Assembly (NCBI GenBank): GCA_963748615.1
Contig: CAVVJQ010000003.1
Span: 194,258 to 258,257 of the forward strand
Direction of reading: 5' to 3'
Length of the DNA: 64,000 bases
From: an uncultured Thermoplasmata archaeon
Lineage (GTDB): Archaea; Thermoplasmatota; Thermoplasmata; UBA10834
Shown: positions 39,764 through 63,616 of the stretch, piece after piece
Layout: each line of letters opens with the position of its first letter
Position numbering within the stretch: the stretch's first letter is position 1
Notes under the pieces: model-generated
What the model was told of the DNA's origin: nothing
Databases searched by the model: none
What the model saw: only the letters and a program-made list of their open reading frames with translations
Translations under genes and position numbers: made by a program

Positions 39764-39992
39764 CGAAGAGGTTAATGTACAAATCCGCACATTAATAGTT
39801 CGGGGATACCAGCGCATAGGATATGACGTGATAGCAGGGAGCATGAGGCGAAATCAGAACCGCTCTAGACACGGGCATGCAAGAACGACTGGCCGAATCG
39901 AGCCACGATAACATTGAACTAGCGCCGATGCATTCCGGGTATTGCGAGATGAACAGACCGCATAGGTTCTCATCTTGCATGGGGGGAAAATC

Positions 39993-41315
39993 ATGATAGG
40001 TAGGGGGATAGCATTAGCCGTTGCCTTGTGTGGATTGTTATCAACAGCATTCATGGCAGGTGGTGTTCCTGCCCAGTTCGCATCGATTTCGATGGATGAT
40101 TCTCTGGCTAGCGTTCCTGATGATCAAGAATTGCAGGAGAGAGATTCTGAGAGATCATGGACCATCGGAATGTATTGGGCGGCCGATAACAACTTAGACA
40201 GCATGACTGAAACCTTCCTCGACATCTGGCTTGATAATATCTGGAACCGTGATGATGTCGCTCTGGCGATATTCATCGACAGGTTGGAGCTTCCAGCGAA
40301 CATAAGCACGGTCACCGAGGAAGGGTGGGTCGAAAGAGAATATCTTGGAGATGTGAACTCATCTAACCCACAGACACTATCAGACTTCATCGAGTTCTTC
40401 ATGACTGCGGAGTATCTCGAAGCTGAGCACTACATGCTCGTTGTTCAAGACCATGGCCTCGGCTACCTTGGCATCTGTGTCGATGAGGGTGAAGAGGGTA
40501 GACCATGGATGAGCATCGACGGACTCGGAAGAGCTTTGGATATGGCAACAGTTGCGACGAGCAAGAAACTCGATATAATCGACCTCGATGCATGCACGCT
40601 CGCAACGGTCGAAGTGGCCTACGAGCTCAGAAATAAGGCATCATACCTTGTTGCTTCTGAAATTGCAGTGCCATTCGACGGGCTCAACTATATTGCTCTC
40701 CTCGATGGGTTGTCGAAGGAACCAGACAAACTGCCGCTTGACCTCGCGTGCAAGATGGTAGACGATTACGAGGAGTGGTACTCTGCACCTCTGGGCACAT
40801 ATCCCACACTGTATCCGTACATGCAGGATTTCGCCACGCTTTCTGTGATGGACCTGAGTGAGATGGACGGCGTCGGGACCGCATTCGCGGCGCTCTCTGA
40901 AGAGCTTCTTCCGAAGGACGGGACATTGATCACACCATTCAATACTGCAGCCCAGCAGCATTTCGTCGCCATGTGGGAGAACAACATGGGCTGTGGATTC
41001 AACTCGGATATCCGTGGGATGTTCGGAGAACTCGCAGAGGTCCTCGCAGAGTCCCATCCGGTCGTTGCATCTCTGTGTGAGGACATCGTGAGCGCAGCAG
41101 ACGATGTGATCGTGAAGAACTGGGAGAGCTGGAGGACGAGGGATAGGCTGTCCGGGATGGCCGTATTCGTGCCACCGTCTATAGGCATATATGATGTGAA
41201 TTGGGACAGTCTCTATCGAGTATACGACACGCTGGGACTTGATTTCGTGACCGATAGCGGGTGGGACGAAATCATCCTGAAGTATTTCTGTACGATGAGA
41301 CAGCACGGGACATGA
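39993..41315 (+). CDS. secreted clostripain-like cysteine peptidase (family C11), paralog 2
   Basis: Signal-like MIGRGIALAVALCGLLSTAFMAGG; WTIGMYWAADNNLD, HYMLVVQDHGLGY (His), LDIIDLDACTLATVE (Cys). The track start is TTG 39975. Confidence 0.75.
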   Translation: MIGRGIALAVALCGLLSTAFMAGGVPAQFASISMDDSLASVPDDQELQERDSERSWTIGMYWAADNNLDSMTETFLDIWLDNIWNRDDVALAIFIDRLELPANISTVTEEGWVEREYLGDVNSSNPQTLSDFIEFFMTAEYLEAEHYMLVVQDHGLGYLGICVDEGEEGRPWMSIDGLGRALDMATVATSKKLDIIDLDACTLATVEVAYELRNKASYLVASEIAVPFDGLNYIALLDGLSKEPDKLPLDLACKMVDDYEEWYSAPLGTYPTLYPYMQDFATLSVMDLSEMDGVGTAFAALSEELLPKDGTLITPFNTAAQQHFVAMWENNMGCGFNSDIRGMFGELAEVLAESHPVVASLCEDIVSAADDVIVKNWESWRTRDRLSGMAVFVPPSIGIYDVNWDSLYRVYDTLGLDFVTDSGWDEIILKYFCTMRQHGT

Positions 41316-45189: not shown

Positions 45190-45400
45190 GTCACAGACCA
45201 GGTATGAACGTTGGTCGTTGAAAAACCTGAGCATCAATCGTCTGATGGAATCAAGCATCAAATTGCAGGATAGGAATAATCGCTAATGCACCATGGGGTT
45301 CTGTCAATAATCGGGTGGTGGTCATGATGACCACCCCCTCGATGATCGACTCGTTCCATTCGGCTTTGACCGTGCGCCCATGAATGGGTCGCAGAGGGTC
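45190..45400 (-). ncRNA. predicted omega-RNA (reRNA) region of tnpB
   Basis: Inferred only from the known architecture, in which the omega RNA overlaps the tnpB 3' end and the right end of the element. The region holds a stable hairpin and direct GCATCAA repeats. Confidence 0.3.
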
Positions 45401-46545
45401 ATCACCACGTCATGCTGGAACGCGCCGGGGCTGAACCGTAAGCCCCCTGCCATCCCTTCCGGGAAGGCTGTATTCAGCAGGTTTATACCAGCGTTGACAT
45501 GTCTATCCGCACGCCAACCGCACTCACACTCGAAATCGACACCCATTCGGGAATGATTCAATCTCCCACATATCGGGCACCTCCTGCTGCTGTTGTATGT
45601 GTCCACCTTGATGACTGGCACGCCTATCCAGGCTGCCTTGTACTCGATGAAGTCGTGAAGCATCTTCCGAGGCCATGAGTTCAACCGTCGGTTGAGCGAT
45701 TTGCCGCGCTTCCGCGCTGTCATCCCACTCAGATCCTCGAGCACAATCGTCGATCTATGCTCCTCCGCGAGGCCGAGGACCGCATTGGCCACTTGGTGCA
45801 TGCGATACTCGATCCGATGATGCTCTCTCTTCCCCTCTCTGCGACACAACCGCCTCGATGTCCGCCGGTCGTGCGCCTTCCTCTTCTGGAGGCTCCTGCG
45901 CCGGTCATGATGCCGTGCCTGGATGATTGGAACATCTGGATACGCGGCCTGGACTGGCAGACACTCATCTTCGCTCAGGAACACGCCGTCCAAGCTCCGC
46001 TCATTGGTATCGAGCGACAGGACCGTCTCTGGAATGTATGATTTAGGTGGGCTCTTCCTGAAGACTATTATGACCCTGTTTGGAAGTAGGGTCAGTGATC
46101 CAAGGGAGAGAGTTCTGTCGTTCAGATAGATGCGATGGTAATCACTCAGGACGAGCCTCAGCTTCACATGACATCCAGCCCGTATCGGAAGGTCGATCAC
46201 CCCTTCCTCCCGGTCGAGCTTGTAGGCCTGATTCTCCGCCTTCATCATCAATCGGCGGATATATGGGATGCGATGGACTGGCCCCTTTCCCCAACGCCTC
46301 CGCAGGTTCTTCAGCACTGAACACGCGACCTCGAAGGAGGAGACAAGATGCTGAGAATAGATGTTCGGATGCTCCTTCCTGAAGTCTTTGTACGCCAGCT
46401 TCACCAGGGCGTTCCTGGAGGTCACTTTCGCCTGGAGGCCGGCCCTGATCGCGCAATTGGCCGCCAGGCGGAAATCCTCCATGAGCATCCTGGCCTCAAA
46501 CGGGAGCTCCCCATGAATGTGGAGCACTACCGCTCTGTGGAGCAT
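45322..46545 (-). CDS. tnpB: IS200/IS605-family TnpB (OrfB, IS1341-type) RNA-guided nuclease homolog
   Basis: SLDTNERSLDGV (RuvC-I), TIVLEDLSGM (RuvC-II), CPICGRLNHSRMGVDFECECGWRADRHVNAGINL (Zn finger plus RuvC-III). No tnpA nearby. Confidence 0.88.
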   Translation of the reverse strand: MLHRAVVLHIHGELPFEARMLMEDFRLAANCAIRAGLQAKVTSRNALVKLAYKDFRKEHPNIYSQHLVSSFEVACSVLKNLRRRWGKGPVHRIPYIRRLMMKAENQAYKLDREEGVIDLPIRAGCHVKLRLVLSDYHRIYLNDRTLSLGSLTLLPNRVIIVFRKSPPKSYIPETVLSLDTNERSLDGVFLSEDECLPVQAAYPDVPIIQARHHDRRRSLQKRKAHDRRTSRRLCRREGKREHHRIEYRMHQVANAVLGLAEEHRSTIVLEDLSGMTARKRGKSLNRRLNSWPRKMLHDFIEYKAAWIGVPVIKVDTYNSSRRCPICGRLNHSRMGVDFECECGWRADRHVNAGINLLNTAFPEGMAGGLRFSPGAFQHDVVMTLCDPFMGARSKPNGTSRSSRGWSS

Positions 46546-54579: not shown

Positions 54580-55893
54580 TTGAGGACCGTAGGATTTCGT
54601 AGTGAGTATTGTAGAGTCGCAACCGTCTTCGCCACTGCCGTGATCATCGTGAGTTCTATAATGGTAGGAGTATGCCGCGCTGACGACCAGGTGAATGTCA
54701 ATCAAGAGGATAACGCGAGGAAGTGGACCATAGCGATGTATTGGGCCAGTGACAACAGCCTGGACGAATACACGGAATACTTCGTCCAACTATGGATGGA
54801 GTATTTGAAGAACAGAGAGGATGTGGCTCTCTGCGTCTTCATCGACAGGCTGACGATGCCTGCAAACCTGAGCACACTGACCGAGACGGGATGGGTGGAG
54901 GTCCGGAGTTATGAGGAGATCAACTCGTCCTCACCGGACACGCTGAGTTCGTTCATCCAGTACGCCTTGACCGAGCCAACGCTTTCAGCGGACAACTTCA
55001 TGCTTATGATCCAGAACCACGGGAACGGGTACCTCGGGCTCTGCTCCGATGAGGGGCTCCCGGACTCCGAATTGCTCAAGGTCTGGATGTCCATAGACGA
55101 CCTGGGCAAGGGAATCAACGATGCGATCGACAAGACCGGCGAATCGATAGACATCATCTCTCTCGACGCGTGCACTCTCGGAACCGTGGAAGTGGCCTAT
55201 GAATTGAGAGGGACGGCATCCTACATGGTGGCATCCCAGCTCGGGGTACCGTTCGATGGACAGAACTACATAGACATGCTCTCAGGCCTATCCGTGGATC
55301 CGGACATAGAGCCATTGGACTTAGCCTGCAAGCTAGTGGACGACTATGAAGCGTGGTACTCTGCCCCGCTTCACACGCTCCCGACACTCTACCCATACAT
55401 GCAGGATTTCGCATCCCTATCGGTCATCGACCTGAAGGCCTTGGACCCGCTTATCGATGCGTTCATCGATTTCAAGGAGGCTGTGATGCCGAAGGACAAC
55501 GCCCTTGGCAAGTATCTGAAGACAGCCGCCCTGCAGTCGGATGTATCCCTGTGGATGAACAACATGGGTACCTGGTTCTATCCAGACATTACGATCATGT
55601 TCACATTACTGGGGGAGAGCACAGCAGAGTCACATCCAGAGGTCTCGAAAGCCTGCGATGCGATCGTGGTAGCGGCTGACAGAGTCATTGTACATGATTG
55701 GGCAAGCTGGAGGATGCGTGGACTAGTCACGGGTCTCTCAGTGTTCGTATGTCCGTCGATAGGGATCTATGAGGTATACTGGGACTCTTTCGACAGAGCC
55801 TACGACAACGTCGGGCTGGATTTCGTCGATGACACCGAATGGGACCTTGTGCTACAGGCGTACTTCTACACTCAGAAGCAGTACGGTGGATGA
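54580..55893 (+). CDS. secreted clostripain-like cysteine peptidase (family C11), paralog 3
   Basis: Hydrophobic N-terminus VATVFATAVIIVSSIMVGV; WTIAMYWASDNSLD, NFMLMIQNHGNGY (His), IDIISLDACTLGTVE (Cys). Long blocks identical to paralog 2. Confidence 0.75.
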   Translation: MRTVGFRSEYCRVATVFATAVIIVSSIMVGVCRADDQVNVNQEDNARKWTIAMYWASDNSLDEYTEYFVQLWMEYLKNREDVALCVFIDRLTMPANLSTLTETGWVEVRSYEEINSSSPDTLSSFIQYALTEPTLSADNFMLMIQNHGNGYLGLCSDEGLPDSELLKVWMSIDDLGKGINDAIDKTGESIDIISLDACTLGTVEVAYELRGTASYMVASQLGVPFDGQNYIDMLSGLSVDPDIEPLDLACKLVDDYEAWYSAPLHTLPTLYPYMQDFASLSVIDLKALDPLIDAFIDFKEAVMPKDNALGKYLKTAALQSDVSLWMNNMGTWFYPDITIMFTLLGESTAESHPEVSKACDAIVVAADRVIVHDWASWRMRGLVTGLSVFVCPSIGIYEVYWDSFDRAYDNVGLDFVDDTEWDLVLQAYFYTQKQYGG

Positions 55894-56046: not shown

Positions 56047-56556
56047 ATGGATGAATCACCGCCCGTGGAGTATCGCAAGTACAAGGACGGCGACCTCGAA
56101 GCTTGCCGTTGCCTCTGGGAACAGCTCACGATCACTCACAGAACCATCTATGACAATCCAAGCATTGGTGGCTCTGATCCAGGCAAGTTCTTCGACGGAC
56201 ATCTTGACAAGGTAGGTGCAGATGGCATATGGGTGGCAGACGCGCAGGGCACGATCGTCGGGCTCATGGGACTCGAGGTGGAAGACGACGAAATGACCAT
56301 TGAGCCGCTCGTGGTAGATCAATCATGGCGAGGGAGAGGTATCGGAAGTCGGTTAATGGAGATCGCCGTTCAGGAGGCAACGAGGCTATGCGCCACGTAC
56401 CTTAACGTAAAGCCAGTTGCTAGGAACATCGAAGCTTTCAGATTCTTCACAGACAACGGCATGTTGAATATCGGCCATGTCGAACTATTCATAGATTTGA
56501 AGAACAGGGAATGGAAGGATGGGCTCAGATTGCATGATATCGATCTGAGATATTGA
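56047..56556 (+). CDS. GNAT N-acetyltransferase
   Basis: LVVDQSWRGRGIGSRLMEIAVQEA (Q/R-x-x-G-x-G/A motif). Confidence 0.8.
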   Translation: MDESPPVEYRKYKDGDLEACRCLWEQLTITHRTIYDNPSIGGSDPGKFFDGHLDKVGADGIWVADAQGTIVGLMGLEVEDDEMTIEPLVVDQSWRGRGIGSRLMEIAVQEATRLCATYLNVKPVARNIEAFRFFTDNGMLNIGHVELFIDLKNREWKDGLRLHDIDLRY

Positions 56557-57018
56557 AGACCGATAACCCTATGATGATGGATTCTTGGCCATGGTCACAT
56601 GTCCTTGCTGCGACTATAGACTCGAATAATTGACACCGTCTCGACAGTAATGACATAATGTGCGTTCTTATTGAACTCGGCTCAGAAGTGAATCAAATGG
56701 CCATGCGTTTATTGAGGTCGAGTTGCTGGATCGTAACAAAACAGGTCAGGAATCAGACGCATCTGTTCTGTCAGAGCAAACTCCGTGGTATGCGATGCCC
56801 GCTGGATGGGATTCCGGGGAAAACAGCGTTCGAACTCAGTAATCATTGTTTTGATTCGATCAGTCACGAAACTGAGCTAGGGAAGATGGTTCGAAGGCAT
56901 CCATGAATTCGACGGAGAATCAGGAATGATCGGATGCGTCAATGATCTTCGCTTCGCCCAAGAACGCAAATGAATAATGCCGTAGCGTCTCAATTCCAGT
57001 TTAACCATTCCGGGCAAG

Positions 57019-58578
57019 TTGGTCCAGACAATGCACACATCCTGCGTCAACCGCCGCTGGGAAGAGCCTTTTTCTAAACCTTTCGCCATCCAGTTTGCAG
57101 GGGAGGTGCCTCGGGTGAAAGGGATCAAACTCAACTCGAACCAAAGGTTGAAAGTCCTGACGGATGACCAGATAGAAATGGTACATGAAGCCGCTCTTAG
57201 GATACTAGAGAGGACAGGTGCCAGATACGACAGTGATGATGCCAGAAAGCGGCTTCAGGACGCGGGAGCCGAAGCCCATCCCACGAGGAAGGGAGTCATC
57301 ACATTCCCGAGATCGATGGTCGACGACGCGATAAAGAAAATCACCAAACGCAACATATTCTACGCCCGAGACCAGAGATGGGATGTCGAATACGATGGTG
57401 AGCACATGTTCCCGTACGCAGGTGGGGGCGACCCGAAGATACTCGACCTTGAGACAGGTCGCCCGCGGCATTCGACATATAGGGATGTCGAGATGGCAGC
57501 CAGACTAGGGGACGCTCTCGAGAACAATCATACTGCATCCAGCCTCGTCATGGCGAACGACGTCCCATCGGAGTTGCTGGTCCTGAAGACCATGGAGGCG
57601 ACCATGAAGAACTCTGGCAAGATTGTCACCGGATACGCCCAGAACAAGGAGACTGTTGATTTCATGGTGAAGATGTGGGCTTGCGTCGCGGGAGGGACCG
57701 AGGAACTCAGGAAGAGACCGTTGTTCAGCCTAGGCGGGTCTCCGAGCAGCCCTCTCACATTTGCAGAACACAATTGCGATGTCATTTTACGGAGCGCCGA
57801 GCAAGGCATCCCGTTCTCCATCCTTTCGTGCCCGATCTGTGGCTCAACTGCTCCCATGACTCTTGGTGGAGGGTTGGCGCAGCAGAATGCAGAACAGCTC
57901 GCCGGGATCATGCTGATCCAGACGGTCACCACTGATCTTCCAGTCTACTACTCTGGCAGAGTCTGCATCATGGATCCCCGGTCAGGAAGAGATCTATGGG
58001 GAGTTCCGGAGGAAGGACTAGTGTCGGTGGCCATCGTGCAGATGGCACGCAGGTACGGAATGATAGCAGATACGAATGGAATGGCATCGGACATCACCAG
58101 ATGGGACATGCAAATGGGGTACGAACAGATGATGACAGCCTTGATGCCGGCTCTGGCTGGCGCGGAGAGCGTCTCCGGGCTCGGATGCGGCTGGGAAGGG
58201 GCCAGCAGCCTCGAGATGATGGTCATCAATAACGAGGTCTTCAATGATATTGCAAGGATTCTGCGCGGGATCCGGATTGATGAGGGAAGTCTCGCGATAG
58301 ATCTGATAGACAAGGTGGGTCACATGGGCAACTTCCTTGCTGAACGCCATACGATGGATAGCATCCGCGAGGGGGAGGCGAGGGCCTCGTCGCTTTGGGA
58401 CAAACGAAACTCGGAGAAGGCAGCGAAGGAAGGGTTCAAGCCCATACAGGATTCCGCAAAGGATCAGGTCAACAGATTGCTGAAGGAACACTCACCGCTG
58501 CCGCTGAAAAAGGATGTGGAGAGAGAGATCGGGCAAATCATCAAAGAGGCTGGCAAGACATTCATATGGAGGCACTAG
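57019..58578 (+). CDS. MttB-superfamily methyltransferase, non-pyrrolysine type
   Basis: LKVLTDDQIEMVHEAALRILERTGARYDSDDARKRLQDAGAE is a typical MttB N-terminus. The frame is continuous with no internal TAG. The true start may be GTG 57115, preceded by GGGGAGGTG. Confidence 0.75.
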   Translation: MVQTMHTSCVNRRWEEPFSKPFAIQFAGEVPRVKGIKLNSNQRLKVLTDDQIEMVHEAALRILERTGARYDSDDARKRLQDAGAEAHPTRKGVITFPRSMVDDAIKKITKRNIFYARDQRWDVEYDGEHMFPYAGGGDPKILDLETGRPRHSTYRDVEMAARLGDALENNHTASSLVMANDVPSELLVLKTMEATMKNSGKIVTGYAQNKETVDFMVKMWACVAGGTEELRKRPLFSLGGSPSSPLTFAEHNCDVILRSAEQGIPFSILSCPICGSTAPMTLGGGLAQQNAEQLAGIMLIQTVTTDLPVYYSGRVCIMDPRSGRDLWGVPEEGLVSVAIVQMARRYGMIADTNGMASDITRWDMQMGYEQMMTALMPALAGAESVSGLGCGWEGASSLEMMVINNEVFNDIARILRGIRIDEGSLAIDLIDKVGHMGNFLAERHTMDSIREGEARASSLWDKRNSEKAAKEGFKPIQDSAKDQVNRLLKEHSPLPLKKDVEREIGQIIKEAGKTFIWRH

Positions 58579-58611
58579 CTGAGCCCTGGGAAGAGGATGA
58601 GAATCTAGAGC

Positions 58612-58700
58612 TTATCACTCCAAATATACCCCTAATTAAAACTGCCAGCTATAATCTTCAAAGCCAAATGTGACCCTTGAATTCTCCGAATTCTTTGATG
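58612..58700 (+). repeat. intergenic repeat copy 1 (box A 58635-58663, variable 24 nt, box B 58688-58700)
   Basis: ATTAAAACTGCCAGCTATAATCTTCAAAG ...24 nt... GAATTCTTTGATG. Begins 34 nt after the mttB-like stop. Confidence 0.85.
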
Positions 58701-58886
58701 GTGACAAGTCATGTATGGCACCTGACGAAATTGGATGCGACCTGAGAGGGGTTCACGCATTCATTTGGCACCTCATTGCATGCTTCTGAGCATGTTGAAA
58801 TAGTCGGGATGGCATTTTCCTCCAGACTCAGAAAAGCAACTGCTTGCGTATTCCTCGATTTGAGGACACCCGACGAGTGGATTGAA

Positions 58887-59774
58887 ATGTCTGATAAGAC
58901 AGGATGCAAATCGGAGAGCGAGCCCTTAATCCCTCGATACGTTGTCAGCATCACCGCATTCATTTGTGCCGGTGCTCTGGCTTTGATGGCGATTCTTGGG
59001 CCCCTGGGGACGGGGACAATACATTATAGAACCTCCCAGTCTGGAATATGGCAGATAGAAGGGGGAGACCTGGTGAATCTCCTTCTCATCACGCCGATCT
59101 TATTGATTGGCGGAACCCTCCACGCAGTTAGGAGGGACAGCTCAAAGTACCTCTTGATACTCCCCCCAATTACATTGATGTACACGGGATTTTCCATTGG
59201 GATTGGTCAGGAATGGAGCAATCCTTCATACACCGGCAACGTCGAGGACTACTTCTGGCTCTACATGATTCTCGTCATTGGCGGACTCATTCTGCTGGTC
59301 GCCAGCCTGTCCATGTTCACTGAGAAAGACACGCCGGTGTTCAAGCCCAGAAGTTTGAGGATTTACGTTGGGGTGATGGGCGTGTTCCTCTTGATGTTCG
59401 CCGCAATGTGGATTTCCGAGCTCTCTCAGGTTGTCTCAACAGGAGACACTTCCTCGGGGTCATATGGGGATGCCCCGACTTTGTTCTGGGTCATAAGGTA
59501 CTTTGACTTGGGAATTACAATCCCACTTGGATTCCTCGCGTTGTTCTTGCTGCTCACGAGGCCAGAGAGATCATACTCCATGGTTCTGCTGTTCTTCGGA
59601 TTCTTCATAACGCTTGGGACAGCCGTCAACTCAATGGGCTGGGTCATGTACATCAATGAGGATCCGGAATTCCAGCCCGGAAGTCTGGTGATATTCTCAG
59701 TGCTGGGAGTATTGTCCTATGCAGGCCTCATCTATCTGGTGAAAGACAAGTTGCGATCGCCTAGCGCGCGATAA
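58887..59774 (+). CDS. polytopic membrane protein (about 7-8 TM), unknown family
   Basis: MSDKTGCKSESEPLIPRYVVSITAFICAGALALMAILG... with repeated hydrophobic helices. ATG 58887 preferred over the track start 58776. Confidence 0.6.
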   Translation: MSDKTGCKSESEPLIPRYVVSITAFICAGALALMAILGPLGTGTIHYRTSQSGIWQIEGGDLVNLLLITPILLIGGTLHAVRRDSSKYLLILPPITLMYTGFSIGIGQEWSNPSYTGNVEDYFWLYMILVIGGLILLVASLSMFTEKDTPVFKPRSLRIYVGVMGVFLLMFAAMWISELSQVVSTGDTSSGSYGDAPTLFWVIRYFDLGITIPLGFLALFLLLTRPERSYSMVLLFFGFFITLGTAVNSMGWVMYINEDPEFQPGSLVIFSVLGVLSYAGLIYLVKDKLRSPSAR

Positions 59775-59817
59775 CCTCGCACAAAGCGCGCTGATCGCGT
59801 CACCGGCAGAACCCGGA

Positions 59818-59906
59818 TTATAGCCCCGAATTTACCCCCGATTAAAACTGCCAGCTATAATCTTCAAAGACTATGCATGGGGCGTCAAACAGTGAATTCT
59901 TTGATG
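59818..59906 (+). repeat. intergenic repeat copy 2 (box A 59841-59869, variable 24 nt, box B 59894-59906)
   Basis: Box A is 29/29 and box B 13/13 identical to copy 1, the spacer length is the same (24 nt) but its sequence is unrelated, and the 5' flank is about 70 percent similar. Begins 44 nt after the membrane-protein stop. Confidence 0.85.
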
Positions 59907-60058
59907 ATACATAACTCGGCTCTGTTGCATAAGCGTCTCTGTAATCCACGGTCCTCGGGATCGAACCTCCTCACATCAGTCTCCATGAGCCTTGAGATTC
60001 GGATATTCGTGCAAGAGCGAAACATGAGTGCGTTTTGTATGCTTTGACCTAACATCGT

Positions 60059-60098
60059 CACTTATAGCATATAAGTATATATATAATATATGCGCTCA
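60059..60098 (+). promoter_or_regulatory. AT-rich TATA-type promoter of the fic gene
   Basis: CTTATAGCATATAAGTATATATATAATATATG lies 10-50 nt upstream of ATG 60109. Confidence 0.5.
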
Positions 60099-60108
60099 TA
60101 ACATCTCT

Positions 60109-61005
60109 ATGGATGAAGGCATACTCACGACGCTGCGCGACTGCCTCCTTACTAGGACATCCCTGGAAAACCTTCCAGAGGATGTCTGGAGACGAGCAAG
60201 CGCTCTAAACACCTGGAGCACGAATGCCATTGAAGGAAACACACTCACGTGGCACGATGTCGAGGTGCTGCTCGTTAAGAAGCGCAGCATCGGAGACAGG
60301 CCAATCGGAGATGTCCTGGAGACTCTGCAACACGAGAAGGTCTTCCGTAACCTTACCCAGCTAAGAGCGCGACCTATTACCCTCGTGACCGTTCTAGAGC
60401 TGCACGAAGCGGTCTTCAGAGGGGTGAAAGAGGATGCGGGAATGTGGAGACGTGTGAACGTTCGAATCACGGGATCGAAGCACGTGCCCCCGAGAATGGA
60501 GAAAGTCGTCAGCGAGATGGAGAAGATGATGAAGGAGTACGAAAGCAGGGATGTCAAAGGAGAGAACGTCTTCATCCTCGGAACATGGTTCCACCACGCA
60601 TTCGAATCCATACATCCGTTCAGCGACGGGAATGGAAGAGCCGGCAGACTGCTATTAAATCTGCACTTTCTCAAGCATAACTGGCCGCCGGTGAACATCG
60701 TTCCACCTGACAGAGACAGATACCTCGACTGCATGGATCGCGGCCATTCAGGGGACCTATCATTCCTCGTCGACTTCGTAAGAGAGATCATGGGCAGATC
60801 CATTCTCGATTTGCTAGATCAGCTCGGCACATCAGAGGATGAACTGAGACCTCTGACGCATTTCGAAGACATGTCTGGGCACTCGGCGAAGTATCTGCGC
60901 CTGCGAGCCGGGCAAGGGAAGCTTCCGGCACTGAAGATATCAGGGGATTGGCATACCAGCAAGAGGGTCATCCGTTTGTATCGGAAGGAAGTAGGCAGAA
61001 GCTAG
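60109..61005 (+). CDS. Fic/DOC-family protein (class II, N-terminal inhibitory motif) with C-terminal excisionase-like HTH
   Basis: HPFSDGNGRAGR (nt 60613-60648) matches HPFx[DE]GN[GK]R. TNAIEG (nt 60220-60237) matches [ST]xxxE[GN]. C-terminal SAKYLRLRAGQGKLPALKISGDWHTSKRVI resembles HTH_17. Confidence 0.85.
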   Translation: MDEGILTTLRDCLLTRTSLENLPEDVWRRASALNTWSTNAIEGNTLTWHDVEVLLVKKRSIGDRPIGDVLETLQHEKVFRNLTQLRARPITLVTVLELHEAVFRGVKEDAGMWRRVNVRITGSKHVPPRMEKVVSEMEKMMKEYESRDVKGENVFILGTWFHHAFESIHPFSDGNGRAGRLLLNLHFLKHNWPPVNIVPPDRDRYLDCMDRGHSGDLSFLVDFVREIMGRSILDLLDQLGTSEDELRPLTHFEDMSGHSAKYLRLRAGQGKLPALKISGDWHTSKRVIRLYRKEVGRS

Positions 61006-61048
61006 ACGCGACTTATAGAACCACCATTTCAGTCGCGTATGCGTAGCT

Positions 61049-61119
61049 CGGATATTGACCCGAAATCTACCGGGGTCTAAATGTCCGAGCTTTAAGATTC
61101 AAGGCGGAATTCTTTGATG
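61049..61119 (+). repeat. intergenic repeat copy 3 (degenerate, spacer deleted; box B 61107-61119 intact)
   Basis: CGGATATTGACCCGAAATCTACC..GAGCTTTAAGATTCAAGG-cg-GAATTCTTTGATG aligns with copy 2 (CGGATTATAGCCCCGAATTTACC..CAGCTATAATCTTCAAAG). Lies 44 nt after the fic stop. Confidence 0.55.
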
Positions 61120-61254
61120 GCAAAGAAATAAGTGAGCAAGTCCGGTGATTGCGCTGTAGAAAATCGCCATTAAAAACAGCTTCCGCCCCAGCGTTGAGAG
61201 GCTGCGTTTCATAGGGATCACGAATAGAAAAGACGACAGGAAGGTTGCTGATGA

Positions 61255-62304
61255 CTATTGTCCTTCTGCGAGATTGATAGCAGTCTCTGCGATATCCGAT
61301 GAATACCCACAAGCTCGTGATACACTCTCAGCTGCAAATGCCAGACCGACTGCAACCTTCCCCCGCCGGGTCATCGCACCCTCAAGGAACTTGTTTATCT
61401 CGTCTTGAAGACGGGATGACCGATCCAGACACTTATTGGCAAGAATAGAATCGCTCTTGAACAAGGCTTCGATGCTGTCATCGAGAATTGAGACCGCACC
61501 ACTACTCAATCGCTCAAGGTCAGTTATCACCGCACGGTCCACCTTCGAAGTCTCCAACAATCTGACGCTGTGCGCGACTCGAACAGCGTGGTCCGCGATT
61601 CTCTCCAACGATTTCGCGGTAGAAAGTAGAACGTCGGACTCCAACCAGCTCATCTTCATCTTGACCGCAAATGATACATTGCGACGGATAGTCGCATGCT
61701 GTTTTTCTACGAACCAGTGAAGTCGATCAACTTCATCATCCCTTGCGATGACCTCATCAGCAAGAGTGACGTCCATACTATCGACTGCCCTCACTGCCTC
61801 CTCGAACATGTTCTTCACCATCAGGTGCATTCGGCGGACGACCTTCCGCATGGCCAGGTCAGCATGGTCAGCGACATCCTGCACAACAATATGATTGGAA
61901 CTCTCTTCGATAATCTCAGGGCCGATCACCCTTCTTGAGAAATCCTGAACAGCCCTTCTAATCTCAGGGAGAATTCTGGAATTGGATCTCACATGAATCA
62001 CGTCATGACCCGTGACATATGCACCGATAAGCTGTCTCAGCAATGCTCGTGGATCAGTCTTGTTATCGACTGATATTTCTTTCGTCAACTTCTCCGTCTC
62101 TCGGGGAGAACCAGAATCTATCGAAAGTGATCCATCACTGCCTATCGTCATTAATAGAAAATCGCCCTTTTTCAGACCGGAGTCCACCACCCATCTCTTC
62201 GGGAGGGAGATCGTGTAGGTCGACCCTCCAGTCTTTTGAATTCGTCTAGATTCCTGCAAAGGTATCAACACCCATAATCGGACTCTATATACACACATTG
62301 GCAC
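61255..62304 (-). CDS. phoU: PhoU-domain phosphate-regulon protein with N-terminal AbrB/SpoVT domain
   Basis: IQKTGGSTYTISLPKRWVVDSGLKKGDFLLM (SpoVT-AbrB) followed by two PhoU repeats (..DDEVDRLHWF.., ..SLERIADHAVRVA..). The start may be GTG 62271 or TTG 62268 instead of ATG 62304. Confidence 0.8.
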   Translation of the reverse strand: MPMCVYRVRLWVLIPLQESRRIQKTGGSTYTISLPKRWVVDSGLKKGDFLLMTIGSDGSLSIDSGSPRETEKLTKEISVDNKTDPRALLRQLIGAYVTGHDVIHVRSNSRILPEIRRAVQDFSRRVIGPEIIEESSNHIVVQDVADHADLAMRKVVRRMHLMVKNMFEEAVRAVDSMDVTLADEVIARDDEVDRLHWFVEKQHATIRRNVSFAVKMKMSWLESDVLLSTAKSLERIADHAVRVAHSVRLLETSKVDRAVITDLERLSSGAVSILDDSIEALFKSDSILANKCLDRSSRLQDEINKFLEGAMTRRGKVAVGLAFAAESVSRACGYSSDIAETAINLAEGQ

Positions 62305-62464: not shown

Positions 62465-63616
62465 ATGAGCGAAGAAACTAGTAAAGATTCAACTGATGTC
62501 CGTGGAAGGATTGCAGCTGTTCAGAAGGATCGCGGGAGAATCAAGCCGATGAAGTTGGTGATCGCAGCCGCCATCGTTGCTCTACTAATCGGAGTGGTTT
62601 TTGCTCTGCAGATTCTAAACTCCCATGGAAATGAGAATGTCACATTATCTGGTGCGGGAGCGACCTTCCCGTTTCCATTGATCTCGAAGTGGGTACAGGT
62701 CTACGAAAATGAGACCTCTGTGAGGGTGAGCTATGAAGGGGTTGGAAGCAGTGGAGGAATAAGCAGAATAGTCGATAATCTCGTGGATTTCGCCGGAACG
62801 GATGCTCCGCTCACGACCGACAAGGATGATCTTGGACTACTTCACATACCGGAGACATTGGGAGCCGTGGTATGTGCTTACAATGTACCCGAGATCGGAA
62901 ATGGCCTGAACCTCACGGGAGATGTGATCGCCGGGATATTCATGCTCAACATCACGAACTGGAATGATCCCGAGATTGCATCAATCAATCTTGGCATGAC
63001 CCTTCCGGACGAGCCGATAACCGTAGTCAGGAGGGCGGATGGCAGTGGAACGACATTCATCTGGAGTTCCTATCTCTCGAAGGTGAATGAGACTTGGATG
63101 GAGCTATATGGAGCATCGAAGACCATAGACTGGCCAACTGATACCATTGGGGGTACCGGAAACGGAGGAGTCGCGGGCGCGATGTCCACGACACCATACA
63201 GCATAGGGTATCTCGAACTCTCGTATGCGATTGAGAACGAAATCGATTACGCAGCCATCCAGAATTTGGAAGGGTTCTTCGTGCTTCCGTCGACCGAGTC
63301 CACGGTTGCAGCTGCTGCATCCAGCGCGGCAACGCTTCCGGCAGGGGATGAGAGCTGGGACGGCGTTGAGATACTCAATGCACCTGGAGATGATTCGTAT
63401 CCGATAGCCAGCTTCACATACATACTCGTATACAAGGAGCAGGCAGACAACCAGAAAGGAAAGGCGCTTGTATATTTCCTATGGTGGATGGTGCATGATG
63501 GACAGGAATATTCAGACAATCTCTACTATGCGCCATTGCCATCCGAAGTAGTCGAGCTCAACGAGGAGACTCTGAGATCCATAGTATGCGAGGGGGAGCC
63601 TTTGTACGATGAATAA
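62465..63616 (+). CDS. pstS: phosphate ABC transporter substrate-binding protein
   Basis: N-terminal TM/signal anchor, LSGAGATFPFPLISKWVQVY, YEGVGSSGGI, RADGSGTT. Confidence 0.9.
   Translation: MSEETSKDSTDVRGRIAAVQKDRGRIKPMKLVIAAAIVALLIGVVFALQILNSHGNENVTLSGAGATFPFPLISKWVQVYENETSVRVSYEGVGSSGGISRIVDNLVDFAGTDAPLTTDKDDLGLLHIPETLGAVVCAYNVPEIGNGLNLTGDVIAGIFMLNITNWNDPEIASINLGMTLPDEPITVVRRADGSGTTFIWSSYLSKVNETWMELYGASKTIDWPTDTIGGTGNGGVAGAMSTTPYSIGYLELSYAIENEIDYAAIQNLEGFFVLPSTESTVAAAASSAATLPAGDESWDGVEILNAPGDDSYPIASFTYILVYKEQADNQKGKALVYFLWWMVHDGQEYSDNLYYAPLPSEVVELNEETLRSIVCEGEPLYDE

Follow-up and report, generated by a model that had tools for sequence, protein, structure and literature searches.

The three repeats that lie behind three consecutive genes near the right end of the window, by which we mean the whole stretch of 64,000 nt analysed here (contig CAVVJQ010000003.1 of an uncultured Thermoplasmata archaeon, positions 194,258 to 258,257), are members of an undescribed family of elements of 100–165 bp. 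The family is new and strictly co-oriented, with one copy at each cassette junction in a hypervariable island. The parts of the element co-segregate in a modular way with the flanking cassettes, and a spacer inside it has a fixed length which falls into two classes. On balance we lean towards the reading that the three copies mark the junctions in an array of gene cassettes, as cassette-junction recombination elements. The coordinates of the copies and of the genes around them are collected in Table 1.

The repeat family and its spacer

Box A (ATTAAAACTGCCAGCTATAATCTTCAAAG) is identical at 29/29 positions in copies 1 and 2, and no further match to it is found in the window at up to 3 mismatches, where 0 are expected by chance. 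Box B (GAATTCTTTGATG) is exact at 13/13 positions in all three copies, and the 24-nt spacers of copies 1 and 2 are alike at 4/24 positions by our own count on the sequence; the identical boxes and unrelated spacers reported in the original prediction are all confirmed. The 5' flanks of these two copies are 87% similar over a 52-nt unit. The copies start 33–43 nt past the stop codons of three plus-strand genes, an MttB homolog (58578), a membrane protein (59774) and a Fic protein (61005). The placement just 3' of genes that had been described is true of the window but incomplete, as in other arrays the gene before an element often lies on the other strand. Elsewhere the element reaches about 165 nt, and copies 1 and 2 are "short" forms of it, truncated at the 5' end. 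Copy 3 had been taken for a degenerate copy with its spacer lost, but it instead represents a second subfamily, in which the spacer is always 2 nt as compared to 24 nt. Only these three copies are present in the window, even when the profile search is taken to E≤10, and there are 0 in the other 59 kb.

With a 20-mer from box A, matches were obtained in four Thermoplasmata/Thermoplasmatota metagenome-assembled genomes (MAGs), and a match in a Bathyarchaeia locus (L005) was rejected as a chance match with flanks that lack similarity. A degenerate 22-mer matched 13 metagenome contigs, and further loci were gathered through Fic homologues. With an nhmmer profile the family amounts to 79 matches, of which 53 are distinct, in about a dozen independent arrays in Thermoplasmata MAGs and metagenomes; counting the copies, a check that had been suggested beforehand, reveals many more beyond the window. 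Every locus with at least two copies (21/21) keeps all of them on one strand, with a spacing of 0.8–12 kb and up to 6 copies per locus. The phage and plasmid collections held no family match. A viral origin was also rejected, two box patterns being without a match among viral contigs and a third giving 3 chance matches only.

Four parts make up the full element: (i) a promoter-like module, gAAcATAAATcc-N9-GAATTAAAATGTGCGAGGGCC, which is optional, (ii) a middle module which starts at CCGGAT, ends with box A and is nearly invariant in subfamily 1, (iii) the spacer, free in sequence but of fixed length (24 nt for subfamily 1, 2 nt for subfamily 2), and (iv) box B with a small dyad, TTCTTTG-NNGG-YARRGAA. 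The consensus of subfamily 2 is ATGTGCGAGGGCCCGGATATTGACCCGGAATCTACCGGTGTTTAAAGGTGGGAGCTTGAAGATTCAAGGTGGAATTCTTTGCCGGTAGGGAAT, and both subfamilies occur together within single arrays. The start of short forms at (C)CCGGAT recurs in no fewer than seven different upstream contexts, and box A hardly varies between genomes with genes that are 72–94% identical. There is also a third, longer subfamily (L029 4562, L029 14295, L030 12822, L031 69 and L019 5963), where a box A homologue is followed by an apparent 3' half of the dyad (ACCGGCAAAGAATGAGG), about 20 nt and a complete dyad, a layout that may come from nested or aborted exchanges at the dyad loop.

The spacer length was taken as the distance from ...CAAAG to G[AG]ATTC. 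In subfamily 1 it is 24 nt in 19 of 24 copies, 23 nt in 4 copies (two of these by normalisation of the box A edge), 26 nt in 1 copy and 15 nt in 1 copy, the last with an 8–9-nt deletion, and all 5 distinct copies of subfamily 2 that were measured have 2 nt. The 24-nt spacers are of at least 10 sequence types with no detectable mutual similarity, and the same types recur in different genomes; type 2, which is the spacer of copy 2, is also present in L002. The length of the spacer is constrained and its sequence is free, and the succession of conserved, variable but length-fixed, and conserved parts first seen in the window holds on a much larger set. Such a spacer is the signature of two boxes that are read together, or of a loop of fixed size. 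The suggestion that spacers might match targets elsewhere was not borne out, as none was found beyond the spacer itself in the window, in about 450 kb of loci or, for one spacer, in viral contigs; with no targets and with types shared between genomes, a role as guide was rejected. In the commonest spacer (type 1, for example that of copy 1) the 3' half, TTGAATTCTCC, is nearly the same as the beginning of box B, GAATTCTTTG, which lies 11 nt downstream; a partial tandem duplication, or an insertion into an older box B, may have given rise to this type.

Recombination inside the element

The window copies sit in a variable segment of about 4.7 kb (56556-61255, from gene to gene) with conserved flanks on both sides. 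The syntenic locus L023 (MAG CAVRDX01) has these flanks in common with the window, at 83% on the left and 94% on the right, and between them it holds six other cassettes with one element after each: GNAT with a gene for 152 aa, Fic, a second Fic (inverted), a helix-turn-helix (HTH) protein with a nucleotidyltransferase (NTase), an AAA_14/DUF4143 ATPase and MntP (inverted). The right-flank homology with L023 (94%) and with L012 (93%) resumes at about 61189-61242, which is 60–110 nt past the end of copy 3 (61130). In L012 the whole MazE-PhoU/pstSCAB-phoU unit lies between two elements, with the HTH + NTase and AAA_14 cassettes on the other side, and judging from this arrangement the pst unit looks as if it were a cassette itself. 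Each cassette consists of one to several genes in either orientation and is followed by one element, and the elements of an array are co-oriented.

Copy pairs that share one flank only were picked out and then aligned, and the window was compared with L023 across the island. The same cassettes recur in an order that differs between genomes. Five cassettes (membrane protein, catalase, MntP, PQQ_2 and AAA_14) keep the left part of the element, including its long or short state, when the downstream partner changes, and the homology stops at or within box A. The membrane protein cassette, for instance, recurs in L014, where its 3' tail and the left part of the element are the same and the spacer and the downstream cassette differ. 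On the other side of the junction, three cassettes occur behind different upstream partners with box B and the 3' dyad retained and, in most cases, the spacer as well: HTH + NTase, MntP and the one that lies downstream of the L006/L013 elements. Exceptions are the AAA_14 cassette, which is preceded by two spacer types, and the MazE-PhoU flank with four different junctions. L027 and L002 agree in box A and along the downstream flank for more than 100 nt, and their 24-nt spacers are unrelated. The spacers on either side of the membrane protein cassette are also unrelated, and the spacer was rejected as a target-site duplication around the cassette.

Because the homology of shared cassettes breaks within the element, the alignments indicate that recombination clearly occurs inside it, with breakpoints that are recurrent and not unique. 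The same cassette is seen with different neighbours and the junction is always at the repeat, which is the functional definition of a gene-cassette array. Four roles had been suggested in the original prediction, and the cassette recombination site is the best supported of them, because elements are located at every cassette junction of the island and the homology between genomes breaks inside the elements. For a miniature inverted-repeat transposable element (MITE) neither terminal inverted repeats nor target-site duplications were seen by eye, for a terminator there is no T-run on the plus strand, and the small RNA has a promoter-like motif in its favour but no targets.

The cassettes would be gained, lost and reshuffled by recombination within the element, for the most part at box A or beside it and at the box B dyad, so that modules (i) and (ii) would act as the right-hand end of the cassette upstream, and module (iv) as the left-hand end of the one downstream. 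The fixed distance could be explained by a protein contacting box A and box B together on duplex DNA, since the spacer is fixed at 2 or 24 bp, a difference of 22 bp or about two helical turns; probably such a protein reads the two boxes at fixed spacing, and it would be a site-specific recombinase or an accessory factor encoded elsewhere in the genome. We infer that the element is the place where cassettes are exchanged, similar to an integron or a tandem att array. It is conceivable, though doubtful, that the elements go further and that archaea have a new cassette-capture system which is orientation-specific and has these elements as its bipartite signals; it would be an integron analogue with the geometry of a recombination signal sequence (RSS) and possibly a transcribed site. 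A recombinase or transposase encoded elsewhere would then bind box A and box B over the 2- or 24-bp spacer, and would insert, excise or exchange entire cassettes, operons such as pst among them.

Several observations weigh against the reading as cassette-junction recombination elements. The breakpoints are spread over CCGGAT, either edge of box A, the spacer and the dyad loop without a single nucleotide in common, and scattered in this way they are as compatible with homologous recombination or gene conversion as with site-specific exchange. Ordinary homologous recombination between repeats of 100–150 bp is the fallback explanation of the shuffling. Among the informative cases, only about half have the spacer going with the downstream cassette, no excised circular cassettes were found among the short contigs examined, and no empty sites were observed. 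Neither an integrase nor a transposase or other recombinase is encoded in the island half of the window (about 40–64 kb), according to Pfam scans, and no recombinase gene is present in any of the about 12 related loci, according to Pfam scans and gene tables; the only such gene seen is an unrelated TnpB 12 kb away. Furthermore, a promoter-like motif at a fixed distance in 30 long forms suggests that the element is transcribed, and a pure DNA site needs no such motif.

Known systems and other explanations

The elements have much in common with integron attC sites, and with CALIN, the clusters of attC sites that lack an integrase. A recombination-site-like repeat follows each cassette, all in one orientation, the cassettes carry unrelated accessory genes, some of them inverted, in an order that differs between related genomes, the site has a variable centre between conserved parts, and no recombinase gene adjoins the arrays. 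An attC site has a core pair at its ends, 50–150 bp apart and mutually complementary, and canonical attC was rejected, as a regular-expression search for R'' (RYYYAAC) and R' (GTTRRRY) on both strands gave 0 pairs in window 56900-61300 and in L023 8000-17300. The paper on archaeal integrons by Ghaly et al. 2022 relies on the attC detection tools HattCI/Infernal and IntegronFinder, and "Thermoplasmat" is absent from its main text (PMC9668308). The elements combine high sequence conservation with weak structure, whereas attC is the opposite, with the palindrome structure kept and the sequence variable. Their variable centre is fixed at 24 or 2 nt, unlike that of attC, and many of them carry a promoter-like module. 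There is no sign of a complete integron with intI and attI beside the array: Pfam scans covering the island half of the window gave no PF00589-type protein, the scans and gene tables of the loci gave none either, and no element or site was seen at the left boundary of the island.

Repeated att sites are also a feature of tandem integrative-element islands, such as the tRNA-targeting additive genomic islands and tycheposon-type arrays. The likeness lies in co-oriented direct repeats between cargo modules, partial copies with a common 5' truncation point, a cargo of nutrient, stress and defence genes and a fixed chromosomal locus. Here, however, the elements are mostly of full length including the promoter module, and not one intact gene with fragments; the order of long and short forms is unlike that expected from successive integration at a 3' end, and the modules hold no integrase genes. 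An att repeat derived from a tRNA or tmRNA gene was rejected, ARAGORN finding no such gene in the window and Rfam giving no match. In their geometry the elements can be compared to the RSS of V(D)J recombination, which consist of two conserved boxes and a length-fixed, sequence-free spacer in classes of 12 and 23 bp. By analogy, the two spacer classes of the elements (2 and 24 bp) differ by an approximately integral number of helical turns and coexist in one array, but there is no sequence similarity and no RAG/Transib-like gene; the geometry is alike, the family is not.

The core site of Xer/dif has two inverted arms of about 11 bp with 6 bp between them and occurs a single time per chromosome, close to the terminus (PMC2958812). 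An 8-6-8 dyad is formed by box B with its 3' arm and is perfect in L003_1067 (ATTTCTTT-GATTGT-AAAGAAAT), but this dyad is multi-copy and its arms are asymmetric in subfamily 2. A CRISPR array or mini-array was rejected, as Tandem Repeats Finder detected none in the window, box B does not repeat the sequence of box A and the units are 0.8–12 kb apart; the scanned proteins hold no cas domain besides the TnpB/Cas12f-like TNB domain 12 kb away. Rfam 15 gave no match in the window at the gathering score and none at E≤5 in 58400-61400, and only one weak unrelated sR53 match at E≤1 in L001-L006. A box C/D sRNA (RUGAUGA, CUGA, 12-nt guides) was likewise rejected, with UGAUGA only in copy 2, UGAUGG in the family consensus and no CUGA at the required spacing. 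The element is outside attC, CRISPR, tRNA-att, C/D-box and all Rfam families.

A stem between box A and box B had been proposed from the window, and 9/10 pairs can indeed be drawn. The minimum-energy folds of copies 1 and 2 leave it unused and do not exceed shuffles in stability (z +0.55 and +0.42). Since box A is invariant where the distal half of box B varies (ACCGGT, GCCGAC, ACGGGT), the changes are uncompensated, and the stem was rejected, an outcome that the original prediction itself had named as speaking against the stem. Pairing between the spacer and box B as an alternative hairpin was rejected as well, the summed duplex energy being not significant (p ~0.065). Copy 3 alone has a strong hairpin, GCTCGGATATTGACCC...GGGTC..TAAATGTCCGAGC at 61045-61090 (+), and its fold over 105 nt reaches -33.7 kcal/mol (z -2.77); this helix is outside the RNAalifold consensus of the other subfamily-2 copies.

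The long forms begin with a promoter-like motif, gAAcATAAATcc-N9-GAATTAAAATG, common to 30 independent copies with unrelated upstream DNA. It resembles a B recognition element (BRE) and TATA box (gAAcATAAAT), with the TATA-like hexamer 19–24 nt before a conserved ATG, 9–10 free nt between and an AT-rich stretch after; archaeal promoter spacing places the predicted start site in or just after ATGTGCG. From the conserved ATG a leaderless open reading frame (ORF) of 14 codons, MCEGPD[IY]xPE[FS]T[GP]x, can be read in long forms (e.g. L023 12089-12238 and L024 14430-14593), and 24/32 copies have a stop (TAA, TGA or TAG) at codon 15. It was rejected as coding, as the entropy by codon position is 0.87/0.65/0.67 without a third-position excess, and an open frame through box A, spacer and box B was rejected because of stops in several spacer types.

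The BRE/TATA-like motif in the consensus of the long forms speaks for another reading, which we hold to be rather unlikely: a family of small-RNA genes or a cis-acting RNA, where long forms are self-promoted and short forms are part of 3' untranslated regions (UTRs), the RNA regulates or insulates the cassettes, and recombination is a by-product of the sequence identity. The dyad at the 3' end would fit, as this hairpin is 87.6% paired in 37 copies and has G.U wobbles which make it foldable on the plus strand only, and the fixed spacer length could be that of a loop or a guide. A second hairpin in subfamily 2 (GAAGATTC/GAATTCTT), overlapping the 3' dyad, has a covariation above that of all 500 shuffles, in 14 sequences only. 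The covariation of the 3' hairpin in the larger set of 37 copies is however no better than that of shuffles, the RNAalifold consensus is weak (-4.5 kcal/mol, with a covariation term of -0.15) and the helices are not conserved between the two subfamilies. There are also neither Rfam matches for the element nor targets for the spacers, and many copies are without the promoter, some of them behind a gene on the opposite strand (L001, L007). A small-RNA role alone leaves the one co-oriented copy per cassette junction unexplained, but an RNA function of the promoter-bearing copies may coexist with the cassette role.

Repeats that are short, multi-copy and intergenic, can form hairpins and may be strand-specific are also found among repetitive extragenic palindromes (REP) and bacterial interspersed mosaic elements (BIME), MITEs and the palindrome-associated transposable elements (PATE) of IS200/IS605. 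The family could be a non-autonomous mobile element of such a kind, repeatedly inserted between genes, for example by an HUH/IS200-IS605-type enzyme acting on single-stranded hairpins, a class of enzyme that gives strand-specific and co-oriented copies. The hairpins are strand-specific, the short forms have a sharp 5' boundary, and there is a gene for an IS605-family TnpB in the window (45322-46545). We think this improbable nevertheless, as the copies are clustered at the cassette junctions of one island and not dispersed. At each of the copies examined the flanking genes change, and none is a solo insertion in an otherwise conserved intergenic spacer; there is therefore no pair of filled and empty sites. 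As to the features of a MITE, neither terminal inverted repeats nor target-site duplications were seen by eye, no empty site was found, and the 5' boundaries are fuzzy. Nothing ties the elements to the window TnpB, a link that was rejected since the window-wide profile search had no match at that locus at E≤10. The TnpB itself is a 407-aa ORF on the minus strand with a Cas12f1-like TNB domain (PF07282, E 2e-17). More improbable still is an ordinary 3'-UTR, terminator or insulator, alike in the three copies through a recent duplication of neighbouring genes. In its favour, all three window copies lie 33–43 nt past stop codons, and the minus strand of the element has T4 runs, but the flanking genes (MttB, membrane protein, Fic) are unrelated and the upstream gene elsewhere is often on the other strand. 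The absence of a T-run on the plus strand and the near-invariance of box A among far more diverged genes also speak against this explanation.

Cassette content and neighbouring genes

The content of the cassettes is accessory. Besides the genes already named, catalase, EamA, SBF/ACR3-like and ABC transporters, DUF2284 and DUF3795 were assigned by Pfam. Part of the island cargo may be anti-virus defence, because the Fic and AAA_14/DUF4143 cassettes match candidate-defence models of PADLOC; the AAA_14/DUF4143 cassette (L023 14535-15917) matches PDC-S01 with E 5e-69. If the elements are cassette-junction recombination sites, uncultured Thermoplasmata would own a platform to collect and reshuffle accessory genes, where the cargo seen includes defence candidates, transporters, stress enzymes and a phosphate-uptake operon. 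It would be a second kind of cassette system in Archaea, with a site unlike the attC of integrons, and box A would be a sequence handle for finding flexible islands in metagenomes. A concrete question is then which protein reads two boxes at a fixed distance of 2 or 24 bp.

Table 1. Elements, cassettes and conserved flanks at the island, in window positions
Feature	Positions	Strand	Remarks
Conserved left flank: GNAT acetyltransferase	56047..56556	+	Similarity to L023 continues downstream of the gene, as judged by eye
Cassette 1: MttB-family methyltransferase homolog	57019..58578	+	First variable gene after the left flank
Element copy 1	58611..58706	+	Subfamily 1, short form without promoter module; nhmmer E ~1e-30
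Copy 1, middle module	58612-58634	+	
Copy 1, box A	58635-58663	+	
Copy 1, spacer	58664-58687	+	24 nt
Copy 1, box B	58688-58700	+	
Cassette 2: membrane protein	58887..59774	+	No Pfam match
Element copy 2	59812..59922	+	Subfamily 1, short form beginning CCCGGAT (59812)
Copy 2, box A	59841-59869	+	
Copy 2, spacer	59870-59893	+	24 nt
Copy 2, box B	59894-59906	+	
Cassette 3: Fic-domain protein	60109..61005	+	Matches PADLOC SoFic and PDC-S04 candidate-defence models
Element copy 3	61010..61130	+	Subfamily 2, diverged full-length form
Copy 3, TATA-like motif	61013-61018	+	TTATAG
Copy 3, ATGCGTAGCTCGGAT	from 61039	+	
Copy 3, box A homologue	61076-61104	+	
Copy 3, spacer	61105-61106	+	2 nt
Copy 3, box B	61107-61119	+	
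Copy 3, dyad/hairpin	61110-61127	+	TTCTTTG-ATGG-CAAAGAA
Conserved right flank: MazE-PhoU fusion gene	61255..62304	-	Convergent with the elements
pstS	62465-63616	+	Follows the fusion gene

On the left side of the island, the similarity to L023 past the GNAT gene extends for a few hundred nt, as judged by eye, with the boundary estimated at about 56900, and there is no BLAST match to L023 between 56544 and 58623. The variable island appears to begin where this similarity ends. The stretch of about 56560-56900 has no gene call in L023, and in the window it contains an ORF of 82 aa (56658-56906, +) without a Pfam match. On the right side, the fusion gene joins a MazE/AbrB-type N-terminal domain to PhoU and is divergent from pstS.

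The MttB-family gene of cassette 1 is an uninterrupted ORF of 519 codons, and therefore has no in-frame TAG for pyrrolysine; other mttB paralogues are located near arrays in L018, L024 and L026. Outside the island, the window also encodes two paralogues of Peptidase_C11 (clostripain family), at 39975-41315 (+) and 54580-55893 (+), 14.6 kb apart, and their paralogy explains the direct repeat D4 (40941/55519, 70%).

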